IMG/VR virus record: IMGVR_UViG_3300032240_001531
Location: 1-64,000 of that record
DNA: 64,000 nt
Direction: 5' to 3' (one strand)
DNA from: a virus
Taxonomy: Duplodnaviria > Caudoviricetes
Position 1 is the first letter of the stretch. Every line of letters starts with the position of its first letter. A program made the position numbers and the translations under genes. Positions 1-55,471 of the stretch are shown here, piece by piece. The notes under the pieces were generated by a model. The model had not been told where the DNA came from and searched no databases. It worked only from the letters and a program-made list of their open reading frames with translations.

Positions 1-81
1 CCCAACAAAAAGCCAATAGCCATTCGCCGATCAGGTGAATGGTGGCTATTGGCTTTTTGTTGGGTCGGCGCGACACGCCCG
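1..81. repeat. Conserved palindromic cassette-boundary element, copy 1 (cut by window edge)
   Basis: 22-bp inverted repeat CCCAACAAAAAGCCAATAGCCA/TGGCTATTGGCTTTTTGTTGGG followed by TCGGCGCGACACGCCCG; same frame as copies at 585 and 1380. Confidence 0.9.
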
Positions 82-110
82 AAAAACATGTTATCAAAAT
101 GTTATAAAAC

Positions 111-150
111 TCCCCGAGGGGAGCGGAGGGCTAGGGCTAGCCCTCCGCTA
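111..150 (-). terminator. GC-rich double hairpin after ORF 156-458
   Basis: AGCGGAGGGCTAG/CTAGCCCTCCGCT stem plus TCCCC-GA-GGGGA; near-identical copy at about 711-751. Confidence 0.6.
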
Positions 151-155
151 TTTTG

Positions 156-458
156 TTAGGCGTTTAGTTTTATCTTAGAGCGCTCTTTGATTACACAAAG
201 CAAAGTTTCTGCCATGTTGTCAAACATACCAAAGACACTTCCAGTGTCCTCGCCAGTTTCAGAATCAACGCTGAAAGTTTCTACCCTAAAAACTAATCTG
301 CTGTATTCATTGATTCTACCCTCTAAGATTATGGAGTTTTCTGTGTCTAGTTCATAAACCCAACTTAGAGTTTCTGGTTGGCGAACCATTGACAAACCTA
401 CCTCTAAAATCTGGTTATCAATGCTCTCGGTAAGTTCTGCTAGTGTTTTATTACTCAT
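156..458 (-). CDS. Early hypothetical protein (cassette 1)
   Basis: 100-aa ORF with AGAGAG-type RBS, 5' stem-loop and promoter upstream. Confidence 0.8.
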   Translation of the reverse strand: MSNKTLAELTESIDNQILEVGLSMVRQPETLSWVYELDTENSIILEGRINEYSRLVFRVETFSVDSETGEDTGSVFGMFDNMAETLLCVIKERSKIKLNA

Positions 459-504
459 TTTTGATACTCTCTCTGTTTTGGAGGAACACTCGGGGAACCT
501 CTCA

Positions 505-580
505 CTTACTAACTTACCGCTAAATAGGGCTATTAGATACCAATTTTGATAACGATATCGTTATATAACGATTTGATAAC
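505..580 (-). promoter_or_regulatory. Early promoter of cassette 1 with GTTAT-n6-GTTAT boxes
   Basis: Minus strand TTGGTATCTAATAGCCCTATTTAGCGG-TAAGTT; similar to 1300-1345 and 2243-2290. Confidence 0.6.
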
Positions 581-584
581 GGCC

Positions 585-684
585 CGCCAACCCAACAAGT
601 CTAAGAAATCGAAGATTTCTAGACTTGTCAAAAAAGCCAGTTAGCTATGCTACTGGCTTTTTTGTTGGGTCGGCGACACGCCCG
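585..684. repeat. Conserved branched palindromic element, copy 2
   Basis: CGCCAACCCAAC-[hairpin]-T-[hairpin]-GTTGGGTCGGCG-ACACGCCCG. Confidence 0.9.
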
Positions 685-756
685 AGATTTTCGTTATCAA
701 ATTGTTACAATCCCCGAGGGGAGCGGGAGGGCTAGAGCAACCCTCCCGCTATTCTG

Positions 757-1005
757 CTAAACTGTTGTGATAAGTGAAACTGGAGTGTCTTGTTCAGTGC
801 AATACTTTAGTTTGCCCCAAGGGGTTTCGATAAAGTAGTTGTAGCCCTCGCATTTAGATTCATGTTCGCGGTTGCAGTTTGAATCTAATTTGATTCTTAC
901 AGGTTCTACAAACTCATCGCCAGCCCAGATTGCCATGATGTAGCCGTTCCAGAGTTCGCCGTCGGATCCTGTGGTGATGTGTTGCTCAGTAATTCTAATT
1001 TCCAT
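757..1005 (-). CDS. Early hypothetical protein (cassette 2, gene 2)
   Basis: 82-aa ORF; AGGAA RBS lies inside the repeated 60-bp intergenic unit. Confidence 0.75.
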   Translation of the reverse strand: MEIRITEQHITTGSDGELWNGYIMAIWAGDEFVEPVRIKLDSNCNREHESKCEGYNYFIETPWGKLKYCTEQDTPVSLITTV

Positions 1006-1062
1006 TTCATTTCCTAACTGTTTGAGTGGTGGCAGTTTTACAGGTCTGCCAACTGTTTTGGA
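1002..1062 (-). repeat. About 60-bp intercistronic repeat, copy A (pseudoknot plus RBS)
   Basis: Nearly identical to 1864-1923: CATTTCATTTCCTAACTGTTT...GTGGCAGTTTTACAGGTCTGCCAACTGTTT. Confidence 0.9.
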
Positions 1063-1067
1063 ACTGA

Positions 1068-1253
1068 TTAGTTGTTTTTGCGAACTAACTCCATTAGTCC
1101 ATTCTTTATGTTGCCAATTGCTGAATTGATTGCCAAAGTGTCTTGCTGACTAAGTGTTGGTTTTGCCAGCTCTTGCTGTAGCAATTCCAAAACCTCGCCG
1201 TAAGCAAGTTGCTTACCAAGTCTGGTAACCAATTTAATCATCTCTGCATCCAT
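1068..1253 (-). CDS. Early hypothetical protein (cassette 2, gene 1)
   Basis: 61-aa helical ORF with AGAGAG RBS and leader stem-loop. Confidence 0.75.
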   Translation of the reverse strand: MDAEMIKLVTRLGKQLAYGEVLELLQQELAKPTLSQQDTLAINSAIGNIKNGLMELVRKNN

Positions 1254-1299
1254 GTTCTAGTTCTCTCTATTTGTGAGCAAGTTCTCTTGACTTGCTTCA

Positions 1300-1372
1300 C
1301 TACTAACATTACGGCAAAATAGGGTTATTACACTAAAAGTTACCATTTCGTTACATAACGAAATCGTTATAA
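1300..1372 (-). promoter_or_regulatory. Early promoter of cassette 2 with GTTAC/GTTAT boxes
   Basis: Minus strand TAATAACCCTATTTTGCCG-TAATGT; GTTAC-CATTTC-GTTAC at 1339-1354. Confidence 0.6.
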
Positions 1373-1379
1373 AACACGC

Positions 1380-1481
1380 CGCCAACCCAACAACTATTGG
1401 AAACTTCGTTTCCTAATAGTTGTCAAAGCCGCATATGCTAAAGCATATATGCGGCTTTGTTGGGTCGGCGCGACACGCCCG
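1380..1481. repeat. Conserved branched palindromic element, copy 3
   Basis: Same flanks as copy 2; arm sequences differ but remain complementary. Confidence 0.9.
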
Positions 1482-1544
1482 GGCTGCATTGTTACACAAC
1501 TGTTATAAAGAGTCAGTTTAGCCACTTGACTCAGGTGGTGTTGC

Positions 1545-1778
1545 TTATAGTTCGAAGTCGCGAGGGAAGGTGATTACTATCTCGCCCTTGTGGCTGTAAT
1601 TGATATCGAGTTTGATGTTTGTCTCGATAGCTTGCACGAGCAAGCGAGTAATCAACTTGTCGTCTGCCCAAGCGTTGCCGTTGCATACATCACAAGTGCC
1701 TGATGCAGTGCCACAGCCACGCTGGTTTATCAGGTTCGGCTTGTCGCTGAACAGGTGGATACTAGTTATTCTTGCCAT
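1545..1778 (-). CDS. Early hypothetical protein, possible Zn-binding (C...CxxC)
   Basis: 77-aa ORF containing GCGTASGTCDVC. Confidence 0.7.
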   Translation of the reverse strand: MARITSIHLFSDKPNLINQRGCGTASGTCDVCNGNAWADDKLITRLLVQAIETNIKLDINYSHKGEIVITFPRDFEL

Positions 1779-1779
1779 T

Positions 1780-1866
1780 TTATTTTCCTAACTTAGATAC
1801 TAGATAACCAATTGCAAAGGCAATGATCATTTCCAATAGGTCTTGCCCGTTTATTATGTGTGTCAT
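1780..1866 (-). CDS. Small hydrophobic peptide (28 aa)
   Basis: MTHIINGQDLLEMIIAFAIGYLVSKLGK; ATG follows the RBS of repeat copy B. Confidence 0.6.
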   Translation of the reverse strand: MTHIINGQDLLEMIIAFAIGYLVSKLGK

Positions 1867-1923
1867 TTCATTTCCTAACTGTTTAGTGTGTGGCAGTTTT
1901 ACAGGTCTGCCAACTGTTTGGAG
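1864..1923 (-). repeat. About 60-bp intercistronic repeat, copy B
   Basis: Duplicate of 1002-1062. Confidence 0.9.
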
Positions 1924-1927
1924 CGTT

Positions 1928-2197
1928 TTATGCCAATGGTAATTCTGTGATGTCTGGCATAATCCATTCTGGAGCCGAACCGTTGACTTCATCAACTTGC
2001 CAGAGTCCATCAACAGACTGCCAAGAATGTGACTGTGCAATTCTGAAACTGTCAATGCCCTGAACTGTGATAGTCAAGATAGACTGCTGACCACTGACAT
2101 CATTGCCAACTGTGTACCCTGATACTTTACCAATGACTGAACTATCTAGTGCTTCATTAGCAAGATAGATAGTGTCGCCGATAGATAACTTGAACAT
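1928..2197 (-). CDS. Early hypothetical protein (cassette 3, gene 1)
   Basis: 89-aa ORF with AGAGAG RBS. Confidence 0.75.
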   Translation of the reverse strand: MFKLSIGDTIYLANEALDSSVIGKVSGYTVGNDVSGQQSILTITVQGIDSFRIAQSHSWQSVDGLWQVDEVNGSAPEWIMPDITELPLA

Positions 2198-2242
2198 AAT
2201 TACTACTCTCTATTAGTGGCAAACTCTGGGGGCTTGCTCTAC

Positions 2243-2302
2243 TATCAACATTACACCTGCCAAGCCTATTAGGATACCAATTTAGGTTACAAAATGGTAA
2301 CG
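2243..2302 (-). promoter_or_regulatory. Early promoter of cassette 3
   Basis: Minus strand TTGGTATCCTAATAGGCTTGGCAGGTG-TAATGT; GTTAC-n6-GTAAC at 2286-2301. Confidence 0.6.
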
Positions 2303-2310
2303 ATTAGTTC

Positions 2311-2368
2311 CGATCATCTGTTCGGACAAGATGCTTTGGGGGGGTACGGTTAGGCGAACACTTGTTCG
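2311..2368. promoter_or_regulatory. Two putative LexA (SOS) boxes
   Basis: CGAAC-ACTT-GTTCG (2355-2368, perfect CGAAC-N4-GTTCG) and CGATC-ATCT-GTTCG (2311-2324, one mismatch). Confidence 0.6.
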
Positions 2369-2682
2369 GGAAAGCCGCCAGGGCTTCCCTACGAGTGGGG
2401 TCTAATAAAGTTAGGCAGTAGCCTAAAGGGCGGGGGGTAGCGGGCGCAGCTGTTTGGGTGTTTGGGTGTTTGTAATGAAATCGTTATGAAATCGTTACTT
2501 AAGCTGTGAGGCAGGTGGCCTGCGCAGCTAGTTAAATATTTGATTATCTTTTTGTTTTAATAGGAATACTTATTTGATTGGTATAGCTGTGCTAGCTGCG
2601 CCGCCTTACCTGCAAATTTCACAATATTAGATGTTGTTGTTTTTCGTGTTATAATCTGTTCCCTATGGTTTATACTGGAGCA

Positions 2683-3006
2683 ATGAGTAGCAGAAATAAA
2701 AAATCTAGAGATATGCGTAAGGCTGGCCGAACAGCTCACTTTGAAGCTGGAGTCAGCGGTGGCCGCGAGTATTGGGACAACAGAGACAACGGTCCTCATA
2801 AAGACACTTATGAATGGTCTACAAGGACTACCTTCCCTTTCGGTCCTAAAGAGCAGAAAGCAACAGGTCTAGACTGGCACATGAAGACCGGTAAGTATCC
2901 TACACATCACCCATCTATGGAGTATGACGAGCGTTGTCCTAAGTGCGAGAGCTTAGACCGTACCTTTGACCATCCTAATGGACGTAAGTGGTCGGACGTA
3001 GAGTAA
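2683..3006 (+). CDS. Hypothetical protein with CxxC, probably leaderless
   Basis: TATACT lies 6 nt before ATG 2683; CPKC motif. Confidence 0.7.
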   Translation: MSSRNKKSRDMRKAGRTAHFEAGVSGGREYWDNRDNGPHKDTYEWSTRTTFPFGPKEQKATGLDWHMKTGKYPTHHPSMEYDERCPKCESLDRTFDHPNGRKWSDVE

Positions 3007-3032
3007 TAAAGCAATGAGTAGAAAGAGAAGCA

Positions 3033-3227
3033 ATGCCGTTATATGAAACAAGCTGTAACCTATGCAGCCAAAAGACTTTGCACAACGCTGTAGATGAAGC
3101 GGGAGCTGAAAAGAAGCATCGCGCGCTTGACTCGCACAAGGAAGCTCAATCACAGTTTGATGCGATAATAAAAAAGTACGAAGACAAGCGTGCTGCTTTC
3201 GAGCATGGTAAAGACCATAACGACTAA
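3033..3227 (+). CDS. Small CxxC protein
   Basis: MPLYETSCNLC; TAATG coupling to the next gene. Confidence 0.7.
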   Translation: MPLYETSCNLCSQKTLHNAVDEAGAEKKHRALDSHKEAQSQFDAIIKKYEDKRAAFEHGKDHND

Positions 3228-53564: not shown

Positions 53565-53960
53565 ATGGCATACATCGGAGATAAAAAACGCGTCTATCAA
53601 AACACTTGGCTTAATTTACGCAGGCTTGCTTGGATTGAATCACAAGGCGGCAAATGCGTTAAATGCGGTTCTGAAGAGCGTTTAGAGATAGACCATATTA
53701 ATAGACATGAAAAGTCTATGAAAATATCAGCTTTGTGGTCCAGGTCAGCCAGTGTTCGTGAAGTTGAATTAAGCAAATGTCAAGTACTTTGCCATACTTG
53801 CCACAAAGAAAAGACTATTGCCGAATCTACTACGGCTAAATGCGGTCAAATAGCTATGTATAATAAAGGCTGTAGATGTGACGAGTGTAGAGAAGCCAAC
53901 CGATTGCGTGTAAGTAAAGGTAGGGAATTAAAAAAACAACGTCTTAATACGCCCCTATAG
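53565..53960 (+). CDS. HNH endonuclease, leaderless
   Basis: CVKCG...LEIDHI...CQVLCHTCH; TGGTACACT lies 6 nt before ATG. Confidence 0.85.
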   Translation: MAYIGDKKRVYQNTWLNLRRLAWIESQGGKCVKCGSEERLEIDHINRHEKSMKISALWSRSASVREVELSKCQVLCHTCHKEKTIAESTTAKCGQIAMYNKGCRCDECREANRLRVSKGRELKKQRLNTPL

Positions 53961-54022
53961 CTCAACGGCAGAGCGCCGCTCTTGTAAAGCGGAGGTTGTG
54001 ATATCGTAATTCACTGGGGGCT
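53951..54022 (+). tRNA. tRNA-Thr(TGT) with atypical T arm
   Basis: Acceptor GCCCCTA/TGGGGGC, D arm GCTC/GAGC, anticodon arm CCGCT-CTTGTAA-AGCGG. Confidence 0.8.
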
Positions 54023-54713: not shown

Positions 54714-54784
54714 TGGTTCTAAGTGTTACGGTAGCACGGCGGTCTCCAACACCGCAGGCGTAGGTTCGACTCCTACAGAACCAG
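54714..54784 (+). tRNA. tRNA-Trp(CCA)
   Basis: TGGTTCT/AGAACCA acceptor; GCGGT-CTCCAAC-ACCGC; GTAGG-TTCGACT-CCTAC. Confidence 0.9.
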
Positions 54785-55033: not shown

Positions 55034-55471
55034 ATGCCCATTAATAACGAGTCAGTTCCAGACTCAAACTTGGAACCATTACGCAAAGAAGTACAGCAGT
55101 ATGTATTTCTAAAGGAAGAAGTTACTGCTATTGAGGCCCGCGTCGGCACTCTCAGAAAGCGTATCCTAGCTGCTGTTGAAGAACTCGGCGAAGAGAACGA
55201 AAAAGGAAGTCTTGTACTTCCTATTGACGATAATGTCAGCAACACTGCTAATGTAGTAAAACAACGTCGTGTGTCTAAAGTATTTGACGAAGACAAGGCT
55301 GATACTTTACTAAAGGAAAAAGGTTTGTTTGATTCATTAACTAAAACAGTTGTAGTACTTGACCAAGATGCTGTCATGGCTGCATACTATGATGGTAAGC
55401 TAACCGACGAAGACATCGAATCTATGTTTCCTGAGAAGGTTACATGGGCACTAATATTGGAGAAGAACTAA
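55034..55471 (+). CDS. Hypothetical coiled-coil protein
   Basis: GAGG RBS; 145 aa. Confidence 0.75.
   Translation: MPINNESVPDSNLEPLRKEVQQYVFLKEEVTAIEARVGTLRKRILAAVEELGEENEKGSLVLPIDDNVSNTANVVKQRRVSKVFDEDKADTLLKEKGLFDSLTKTVVVLDQDAVMAAYYDGKLTDEDIESMFPEKVTWALILEKN

Follow-up and report, generated by a model that had tools for sequence, protein, structure and literature searches.

Three Compact Pseudoknots Between Small Minus-Strand Genes

The window, a stretch of 64,000 nucleotides from a Caudoviricetes genome (IMG/VR record IMGVR_UViG_3300032240_001531, positions 1 to 64,000), carries near its left end a series of small ORFs on the minus strand, and three compact H-type pseudoknots lie between them (Table 1). 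All three had been proposed from the sequence alone, and re-reading of the sequence located each of them at the proposed position and on the proposed strand. The two type A copies are 26 nt long and identical to each other, an agreement reached by 0 of 100 shuffles. Each consists of a stem P1 (ACAG/CUGU), a loop L1 (UU), a stem P2 (GGCAG/CUGCC), L2 (AC), and L3 (AAAA). The type B copy has different paired bases, namely P1 CCAC/GUGG, L1 CU, P2 GAGUC/GACUC, L2 AA, and L3 CUAAACU. The AAAC described earlier as common to all knots before the last strand is an approximation: type A has an AAAA loop, and pairing starts with the C.

Table 1. Pseudoknots, spacers, and ORFs at the locus (window coordinates)
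Feature	Coordinates	Strand	Remarks
89-aa ORF upstream of copy 1	1928..2197	-	no known family; stop 10 nt before knot
Type A pseudoknot, copy 1	1892..1917	-	sequence read; family covariation
Spacer and RBS, copy 1 to 28-aa ORF start	1867..1891	-	AGGA at 1876-1873; within 80-nt repeat
28-aa hydrophobic ORF downstream of copy 1	1780..1866	-	similar small ORF in L004
77-aa ORF	1545..1778	-	stop 6 nt before type B knot
Type B pseudoknot	1510..1538	-	sequence read, H-type descriptor; family covariation
61-aa ORF	1068..1253	-	stop 11 nt before copy 2
Type A pseudoknot, copy 2	1031..1056	-	identical to copy 1; ACCA directly 3'
Spacer and RBS, copy 2 to 82-aa ORF start	1006..1030	-	AGGA at 1015-1012; within 80-nt repeat
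82-aa ORF downstream of copy 2	757..1005	-	homologue in L008/L375, 61% identity

The sequence-only reading had also placed two of the knots just upstream of the next gene's RBS. This is true of both type A copies, where AGGA lies in between, the knot ends 25 nt before the next ORF in each case, and that ORF has its own RBS and ATG. Knot and RBS both lie in one 80-nt repeat whose two copies are 80% identical, and because both copies belong to it, the window's type A pair provides no covariation. The type B copy has no gene start behind it and stands at the end of the first transcription unit, a position that is taken by GC-rich hairpins in the other two units. The bases that follow the three knots are ACCA, ACAC, and UUUA. 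In a promoter and terminator scan of positions 1-3100, sites relevant to the motif were no more frequent than in shuffles. We also considered whether the ACAGUU repeated after the type A copies might act as a switch and rejected this, as it is absent in the relatives L004 and L356.

Taken by itself, the window gives weak evidence for the knots. Nested folding recovers P2 alone, with an energy in the ordinary range (z-scores of -1.2 to -1.8). The bare H-type topology is common, since a loose descriptor matched 107 times, at about 50 places on both strands, in the 79,408-base genome. A further candidate at 55049-55076 on the plus strand lies inside an ORF (55034-55471) and was dismissed as a chance match. 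The window knots are significant because covarying relatives exist elsewhere.

Relatives in Viral Contigs Form Two Covarying Families

Relatives were gathered by scanning IMG/VR viral contigs and fall into two subtypes. The consensus of type A is nnnG-UU-GnnnG-A-n-Cnnn-AAAA-CnnnC, and that of type B is nnnC-CU-GnnnC-A-n-Gnnn-CUAAACU-GnnnC. Covariation was assessed with the loops and closing bases held fixed and six stem pairs left free. Of 99 type A matches, 9 had complementary bases at all six free pairs, where 0.28 were expected and a control with swapped partners gave 0. For type B, this was so in 38 of 48 matches, and a further scan found 31 of 33 matches paired. With P2 of type A fixed, the three junction-side P1 pairs were kept in 33 of 75 viral matches, represented by six different P1 sequences. 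With P1 fixed instead, all five P2 pairs were present in 10 of 121 matches, in which P2 was GGCAG, GCUAG, or GAGGG. Paired cells made up 93.5% and 96.8% in the two families, compared to 24-43% when the partners were slid, and the covariation score was reached by 0 of 500 shuffles. Finally, a strict descriptor found 62 matches in 2.56 Mb and 4 in the reversed sequence. Both P1 and P2 thus covary in both families, so that homologues do conserve the two stems and the pseudoknot topology originally proposed is correct.

Neither the loops nor the two junction base pairs vary within a subtype. The G8-C18 pair, U9, U10, and A22-A25 are invariant in type A; type B has a C-G pair followed by CU where type A has G-C followed by UU. 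Both subtypes have an invariant U just before P2 and a G-C pair at the opening of P2. The base before the 3' strand of P1, on the other hand, varies, with 34 C, 15 U, 7 A, and 6 G among 62 type A copies, and L003 and L005, whose surroundings are otherwise identical, read AG and AA at this junction. Loop bases that stay fixed while stems covary across unlinked contigs are usually the sign of a demanding molecular task.

The window knots are members of this phage-specific family of H-type pseudoknots of 26-30 nt with two subtypes. That the third, sequence-divergent window knot is a version of the same device, as the first reading had it, is borne out by the neighboring genes as well as by type B forming a covarying family of its own. 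In L008 and L375, the homologue of the window's 82-aa ORF is preceded by a type B knot instead of a type A knot. L004 has a small ORF similar to the window's 28-aa ORF behind the same knot, and L356 carries a knot identical to the window's type B copy.

The Family Is Spread Across Phage Contigs and Is Absent From Rfam 15

The motif occurs in more than a hundred viral contigs that have no neighboring genes in common. It is rare in prokaryote genomes, where the fold is present in 4 of 35 matches. None is part of a repeat array, and one falls inside a CRISPR spacer, not a repeat. Among GenBank phages, no real match was obtained either by megablast with a 6-kb query or by blastn with the cores of types A and B and with a 110-nt flanked variant. 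The terminase shares 54% identity with its counterpart in Streptomyces phage BRock. Record G000 contains 0 copies of the cyanophage marker HIP1.

The Rfam search that had been suggested for the motif was carried out, and the motif matches no family of Rfam 15. At the gathering thresholds, the whole window yields two tRNAs only, and in E-value scans of a 3-kb region and of short stretches, the only matches on the motif were weak and partial ones to Bacilli-1 and Ref64. We found no description of the motif in the literature; a catalogue of 10,006 candidate viral structured RNAs may include it, as far as the accessible part of that source allows one to say (PMC10690425). Absent from Rfam 15 and apparently confined to phages, the family looks like a missed piece of phage gene-expression control. 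Being tiny and modular, it is an element whose function is directly testable, and if it turns out to be a stabilizer, an insulator, or a ribosome-binding part, it would be useful across bacterial hosts.

The Knots Sit Between Unrelated Genes on the Same Strand

The knots are found in early-gene clusters and are intergenic in 81 of 90 distinct contexts. The nearest ORF of at least 100 aa lies on the knot's own strand in 58 of 70 cases upstream and in 54 of 61 downstream. Complete or near-complete genomes have one to three copies, and in the type A set and the genomes examined, these are single, never tandem. Across the family, a knot typically stands 4-11 nt past a stop codon, and the next start codon follows at 8 nt or at 20-38 nt. 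Among the type A copies, 20 of 62 begin 4-7 nt after the stop, and no knot is closer than about 4 nt to a genuine one. Where the host uses Shine-Dalgarno sequences, the knot-AUG distance is 20-38 nt and the Shine-Dalgarno sequence lies in between. At loci without one, 12 of 41 type A knots end exactly 8 nt before the AUG, and 14 of 41 end 7-9 nt before it; the AU-rich spacers differ in sequence. Types A and B interchange before homologous genes and RBSs.

The genes behind the knots are unrelated small ORFs. No common family emerged among 49 downstream proteins, in which the Pfam families DUF7178, GP88, HTH_3, and DUF7227 each had one member, and BLASTP clustering of 1,850 ORFs located within 5 kb of knots gave no cluster present in more than 6 of 85 loci. 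The suggestion that the motif travels with cargo genes therefore stands, with the cargo being unrelated from locus to locus.

Some copies precede tRNA genes, by 3 and 7 nt. A tRNA gene lies within 40 nt of the knot in 5 of 90 contexts, where about 0.3 would be expected. The L017 variant sits 4 nt past one tRNA and 7 nt ahead of the next, and the L006 knot is found 24 nt past a tRNA pair, where a convergent terminator follows closely and no gene lies behind the knot. Of 85 distinct contexts, 10 have ACCA directly 3' of the knot and 14 have ACC, as against 0-2 for each of eight other offsets. An A comes first after the knot in 55 of these 85 contexts, and at least four of the first six bases are U in 24 of 90.

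Comparison With Known Small RNA Structures

Of the known RNAs, the preQ1-I riboswitch (RF00522) has many features in common with the knots. Its hallmarks, as given in the accessible text of PMC11625349, are an H-type fold, a G-C pair atop P1, UU, an A usually followed by C, and an A-rich L3. The phage element is likewise a very small H-type knot that has a G-C pair atop P1, UU after the 5' strand of P1, and A-C before its 3' strand. Its L3 is A-rich and lies in the minor groove of P1, and a start codon follows closely downstream. On the strength of these shared hallmarks, one could read the knot as a very small riboswitch aptamer, related to preQ1-I or convergent with it, whose ligand would bind at the P1/P2 junction and control the downstream gene. 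The dimensions differ, however: L2 has 2 nt rather than 4-6, L3 has 4 nt rather than 6-8, and P2 has 5 bp. The would-be specificity base, an invariant cytosine in preQ1-I, is not conserved, even between near-identical loci. The element is phage-confined, and neither a queuosine-pathway family nor any other shared family appears among the 49 downstream proteins (0/49). RF00522 was unlisted at E values up to 10 for stretches of 66, 61, and 46 nt, as were the other Rfam preQ1 models for such stretches, and it did not appear in the 3-kb-region or whole-window scans. Copies beside tRNAs and at operon ends also speak against a riboswitch, which we regard as the least probable of the roles considered here.

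In Rfam, the best partial match is to Bacilli-1 (RF02931), with 12.7, 9.8, and 8.6 bits on its tail only against a gathering score of 55.6 bits. The consensus of its single-stranded 3' tail, GCUUGGCAGAGC-UAAAAACUG, is close to the type A core. The phage knots, however, are missing the upstream hairpin of Bacilli-1, whose equivalent of P1 would have only 2 bp.

The -1 frameshift knots of luteoviruses (BWYV and PEMV class) measure 26-28 nt, with a short L1 and a junction of one or two bases. Their A-rich loop lies in the minor groove of stem 1, and tertiary triples give them high mechanical stability. The phage knots resemble them in size, in the short L1 (two bases, with C first in type B), in the short junction, and in the A-rich loop. 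Unlike the luteovirus knots, they follow stop codons, not slippery heptamers, which a frameshift stimulator has 5-9 nt upstream: the window knots have TAA stops 6-11 nt upstream, with no X XXY YYZ site before them and no overlapping -1 frame.

The T4 gene 32 leader offers a parallel, since this phage mRNA leader has an H-type pseudoknot with an effect on translation, as mentioned in the accessible part of PMC10690425. The T4 knot serves one gene, that of the ssDNA-binding protein, in autoregulation by its product, whereas the phage element described here precedes unrelated genes and tRNAs. A weak comparison is that with the xrRNAs of flaviviruses and plant viruses, compact viral pseudoknots that have been proposed or shown to stop a processive nuclease. 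According to the accessible text of PMC11702639, xrRNAs are defined by a ring or knot around the 5' end and have at least 44 nt with extra helices. The phage element is a bare H-type knot of 26 nt and two helices, in which such a ring is unlikely for want of an extra strand.

A Possible Barrier or Insulator Between Transcript Units

We tentatively favor, with limited confidence, the reading that the knot is a ligand-independent barrier or insulator for the flanking RNA. The knots would be self-contained modules whose tertiary contacts hold the fold together and which fold without a ligand; this independence is suggested by the base before the 3' strand of P1, since it varies even between near-identical loci. 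The fold would persist with one ribosome terminating a few bases before it and another initiating behind it, and a start 4-7 nt after the stop codon may represent the nearest approach that a terminating ribosome can make without unwinding the knot. In early polycistronic and tRNA-containing transcripts, the knots could then serve as punctuation, at which exonucleases or an RNase scanning from the 5' end would be prevented from crossing between units. A downstream start region or tRNA would also be insulated from upstream sequence at the cost of far fewer bases than a long hairpin needs.

A generic rather than gene-specific module is indicated because the knots are intergenic and on the same strand as their neighbors, share no neighboring genes, and are exchanged between types A and B before homologous genes. 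A barrier also fits better than a purely translational element because copies adjoin tRNAs, end operons, or have no gene downstream. Several observations count against it. One to three copies per genome are few for a general stabilizer, the 8-nt knot-AUG spacing and the co-duplication of knot and RBS point to translation initiation, and the folding energy is unremarkable. A plain H-type knot would also lack the ring topology of proven xrRNAs (PMC11702639).

The main rival of the barrier is a role in translation initiation. The knot would dock on the platform of the 30S subunit, where it would stand in for the Shine-Dalgarno helix or serve as a standby or S1-type enhancer, and it would set the start of the downstream small gene. 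This role is possible, but we consider it rather improbable. The rigid 8-nt spacing is seen in hosts without Shine-Dalgarno sequences and across spacers that are unlike in sequence, and the knot travels with the downstream RBS and gene, not with the upstream gene; both suggest something related to translation, which was not among the roles put forward by the sequence-only reading (an exonuclease block, a processing site, or protein binding). In L162 and L150, moreover, the genes preceded by a knot have no purine-rich leader, although other genes of the same phage do. Such a role is difficult to reconcile with the copies that have no ORF behind them, which include those before or after tRNAs, those at operon ends, and the window's type B knot. 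Crude ORF calling at 21 loci that lack a Shine-Dalgarno sequence showed that the other genes there mostly have none either, a pattern that does not bear on whether the knot stands in for it. Phage-encoded bS21 is absent in six records, G000 and five others, of which three are small fragments.

Does the Knot Engage a Universal Host Machine?

The association with tRNA genes and the ACCA that follows some knots raise another explanation, that the knot mimics a tRNA acceptor arm, so that RNase P or the 3'-trimming and CCA-repair machinery would cut or cap phage transcripts. The acceptor-arm pseudoknot in the tRNA-like structure of TYMV has the same strand order as the phage knot, and the 3' strand of its second stem is followed by ACCA. 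A subset of phage copies shares this ACCA, and the phage knots are likewise associated with tRNA genes; they differ in having no T arm or other tRNA-like part and in being internal rather than 3'-terminal. The invariant U before P2, the G-C pair that opens P2, and ACCA in the copies that have it match the RNase P determinants U-1, G+1/C72, and RCCA, as described in the accessible text of PMC11143913, and the works in that paper's reference list include some on RNase P cutting the tRNA-like structure of TYMV, the C4 RNA precursor of phages P1/P7, and operon mRNAs. According to the same text, however, RNase P measures a 12-bp acceptor/T stack (PMC11143913), while coaxial stacking of the 4 bp of P1 on the 5 bp of P2 gives 9 bp and no T-loop. 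ACCA is present in a minority of contexts and is lost between close relatives, U-1 would probably not be part of a free leader but sit in the deep groove of P2, and cleavage there would destroy the knot. We therefore consider acceptor-arm mimicry unlikely.

More broadly, a portable 26-nt pseudoknot carried by phages of several bacterial phyla might directly engage a universal host machine, an idea that we hold possible yet doubtful and that could take two forms. The knot could be the first bacterial counterpart of viral ribosome-recruiting structures, replacing the Shine-Dalgarno helix 8 nt before the AUG, or it could be a minimal tRNA-acceptor mimic that hijacks tRNA-processing or repair enzymes and caps phage RNAs. 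Either way, no smaller natural RNA would be known to have such an ability, and the knot could be used as it stands in the engineering of gene expression.

RNA polymerase is common to all hosts as well, and a knot that acts on it would fit the absence of a shared phage protein. The knot could be a put-like antitermination element, or a pseudoknot-dependent terminator or attenuator followed by a U-run; terminator-like hairpins do lie downstream of knots in the window and in L006, and some contexts are U-rich just after the knot (24/90). The U-run is missing in most contexts, however, and an action on transcription leaves the fixed distance to the start codon unexplained, which makes this role highly improbable.

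We give an equally low probability to the knot being a trans-acting decoy or aptamer, freed from early transcripts or tRNA arrays, that binds a conserved host protein such as a nuclease or a defense enzyme. Most copies lie within mRNA and keep fixed distances to coding sequences. There are also no tandem arrays or matching repeats in host genomes, as would be expected of type III antitoxin or CRISPR-repeat mimics. In favor of a decoy, the element is phage-specific and occurs in early regions without a linked protein, and RNAs selected as reverse transcriptase inhibitors are H-type knots whose loop reads AAAA. The L006 knot, placed after a tRNA pair with no gene behind it, would suit such a function, and in L017, tRNA processing would release an RNA of about 37 nt.

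The pseudoknots of the window

Reading of the minus strand bore out three compact H-type pseudoknots (stems P1 and P2, loops L1 to L3) directly after stop codons, as a sequence-only reading had claimed, and the analysis was extended from there. From about position 2200 to 1, this strand carries leftward small ORFs of unknown family, arranged as three similar units. The type A copies both end 25 nt 5' of an ORF start (28 and 82 aa) with AGGA in between, while the type B copy forms the end of the first unit and GC-rich hairpins occupy the same place in the other two. The source record has 79,408 bases (estimated 87% complete), and the window covers its initial 64 kb; terminase, portal, and tail sheath genes there identify a tailed phage whose tail is contractile. 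The window has a GC content of 42.4%, and Shine-Dalgarno sites serve its genes.

Pseudoknots and other noncoding or short features, by position
Feature	Location	Strand	Description
Type A knot, copy 1	1917-1892	-	ACAG-UU-GGCAG-AC-CUGU-AAAA-CUGCC; 10 nt from upstream stop
Type A knot, copy 2	1056-1031	-	Identical to copy 1; 11 nt from upstream stop
Type B knot	1538-1510	-	CCAC-CU-GAGUC-AA-GUGG-CUAAACU-GACUC; 6 nt from upstream stop
Two-codon mini-ORF	1862-1870	-	ATG-AAA-TGA, overlapping start codon of 28-aa ORF
Structured block	1-110, 560-720, 1340-1500, 2470-2500		Repeated, heavily structured, noncoding; end of each early unit
tRNA genes	53951-54022, 54714-54784	+	No pseudoknot adjoining either
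CRISPR spacer	L328 (Alkaliphilus MAG contig):3752-3787		Array of at least 18 repeats; matches type A knot and flanks

Within the window alone, the knots were not shown to exceed chance. The identical type A copies stem from one 80-nt duplication, RBS included; a loose H-type descriptor matched at about 50 places in this genome; and nested folding recovered P2 only, with z-scores of -1.2 to -1.8. The type A 26-mer itself had no match in 100 shuffles. We built the case on other phages.

Both stems covary in other viruses

Five viral loci matched when the type A stems were fixed and the loops left open, and each of them had the UU, A-n, and AAAA loops. When P2 was fixed and P1 left free, 33 of 75 matching loci had complementary bases at all three junction-side P1 pairs (ACAG/CUGU, AUAG/CUAU, ACGG/CCGU, AUGG/CCAU, AGAG/CUCU, ACUG/CAGU, and others). 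Fixing P1 and freeing P2 gave, among the 121 matches listed, at least 10 with all five P2 pairs (GGCAG, GCUAG, GAGGG) and at least seven with four of five, six of these being GCGG/CCGC. With only loops and closing bases fixed, all six free pairs were complementary in at least nine of the 99 matches listed, in newly fetched loci, against 0.28 expected and none in a swapped-partner control. A strict descriptor matched 62 times in 2.56 Mb of viral loci and four times in the reversed sequences. In an alignment of 36 distinct sequences, 93.5% of cells were paired (24-43% with partners slid), double changes occurred at six of nine pairs, and the covariation score was reached by none of 500 shuffles; because these sequences were chosen for pairing, the unfiltered match counts weigh more. 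Both P1 and P2 covary in type A.

The type B form matched 43 viral loci. Among fixed-length matches, 31 of 33 had all four P1 pairs, and their central P2 pair was complementary too. When six pairs were freed, full complementarity was seen in 38 of 48 matches, which added the P2 variants GAAUC, GGAGC, and GGGUC. Aligning the window copy to 13 of 14 distinct sequences of fixed length gave 96.8% of cells paired and a covariation score reached by none of 500 shuffles; the 14th, from the comparison locus L356, was left out as a duplicate of the window copy. The RBS downstream of this L356 knot is nearly the same as that behind the type A copies of the window. A relative (L008/L375, 97% complete) encodes a homologue of the 82-aa gene (61% identity), preceded by the type B knot GAC-CU-GAGCC-AU-GUC-CUAAAACU-GGCUC. 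Judged by these comparisons, the divergent third copy is no chance look-alike, and its assignment to the same topology held. Between types A and B, two junction pairs (G-C vs C-G), L1 (UU vs CU), and L3 (AAAA vs CUAAACU) change together, as would be expected from sets of tertiary contacts.

On viral contigs from the P2-fixed scan, 32 of 48 matches to the GGCAG pattern fit the fold. In prokaryotes, scanned with this pattern in one genome per species, only four of 35 matched loci did so: an Alkaliphilus MAG, a Verrucomicrobiota MAG, an uncultured bacterium, and a CRISPR spacer of the same Alkaliphilus MAG. On another contig of that MAG (L303), the knot precedes a gene that has an AGGAG site. No GenBank phage carried the knot forms tested.

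Relation to known RNAs

The Rfam search proposed with the sequence-only reading returned no family in Rfam 15, the best partial match being the 3' tail of Bacilli-1 (12.7 bits; gathering score, 55.6). This tail (RF02931, about model positions 43-65), given as single-stranded in the annotation, resembles a type A core whose P1 has 2 bp and may conceal a pseudoknot of this kind. We take the architecture to be close to luteovirus frameshift knots as well; frameshift knots have a slippery site, whereas none precedes the window's knots. The nearest architecture is that of preQ1-I aptamers, which, according to PMC11625349, likewise have a G-C floor pair, UU, 'AC', and an A-rich L3. Membership failed, as the would-be specificity base varies even among near-identical loci, the queuosine gene context is absent, and no covariance model matched; a riboswitch is the least probable of the functions considered. 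The ring topology by which PMC11702639 defines xrRNAs could hardly be formed by a bare 26-nt knot. We found no description of the motif in the literature, and the catalogue of 10,006 candidate viral structured RNAs in PMC10690425 may include it in its supplementary data. As far as our searches reach, this phage RNA family has not been described before and belongs to a known structural kind.

Genomic context and possible function

The knots are intergenic in 81 of 90 distinct contexts. The nearest upstream ORF of at least 100 aa shares the strand of the knot in 58 of 70 cases, and the nearest downstream one does so in 54 of 61. Of 62 type A knots, 20 start 4-7 nt past a stop. Downstream proteins, mostly of 40-120 aa, are unrelated: 49 of them matched 14 PHROG and four Pfam families, each with a single member, and no protein cluster within 5 kb was common to more than six of 85 loci. 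The element is a conserved pseudoknot on the sense strand of intergenic spacers; its loops are specific to each class, and it is tied neither to a gene family nor to a linked protein. Complete or near-complete genomes have 0-2 exact-pattern copies, which lie near a genome end in the window's relatives; the window's own genome has three. That they serve as trans-acting decoys is very improbable.

In 12 of 41 cases, a type A knot ends 8 nt before the ATG, with differing AU-rich spacers and no Shine-Dalgarno site; most others end 20-33 nt before it with such a site in between, and for type B knots the distance is 14-58 nt. Because this 8-nt spacing is fixed and the knot travels together with the downstream RBS, a role in translation initiation is kept as a possible, close second reading.

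A same-strand tRNA gene lies within 40 nt in five of 90 contexts (about 0.3 expected): 3 nt after the knot for tRNA-Leu, 7 nt after it for tRNA-Asn, and 24 nt before it in three homologous loci. In the comparison locus L006, the knot 24 nt after the tRNA is followed only by the terminator of a convergent gene; a function in transcription would be about as improbable as a decoy. L017, a 48-kb viral contig (100% complete), has a looser variant between two tRNAs; its genes include 11 for tRNAs and one for a tmRNA whose tag peptide is DNNRYATPIAA. ACCA directly follows the knot in 10 of 85 contexts, compared with 0-1 at other offsets, and the knots show only part of the RNase P substrate determinants given in PMC11143913. 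Mimicry of a tRNA acceptor seems unlikely, if less so than a transcription element.

We tentatively favor a ligand-independent barrier or insulator, a reading that accounts as well for copies next to tRNAs and at operon ends. The knot would fold on its own, act through machinery that hosts of many phyla share, and stay folded between a terminating and an initiating ribosome, so protecting the flanking RNA units.

Other elements of the early units

The block at the end of each early unit has an outer inverted repeat (CGCCGACCCAACAA/TTGTTGGGTTGGCGG) around a bidirectional terminator-like hairpin; operator-like palindromes of the ATAACGAnnTCGTTAT form then precede the next unit. The cassette duplicated before the 82-aa ORF repeats the ATGAAATG arrangement of the 28-aa ORF start. 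In two comparison loci, L162 (1600-3400) and L150 (minus strand), a TTGACA-type promoter precedes two consecutive genes, each with a knot 8 nt before its AUG, and the genes of the next unit carry a repeated purine-rich leader, cacataagaaaggaaaaca, instead of the knot.
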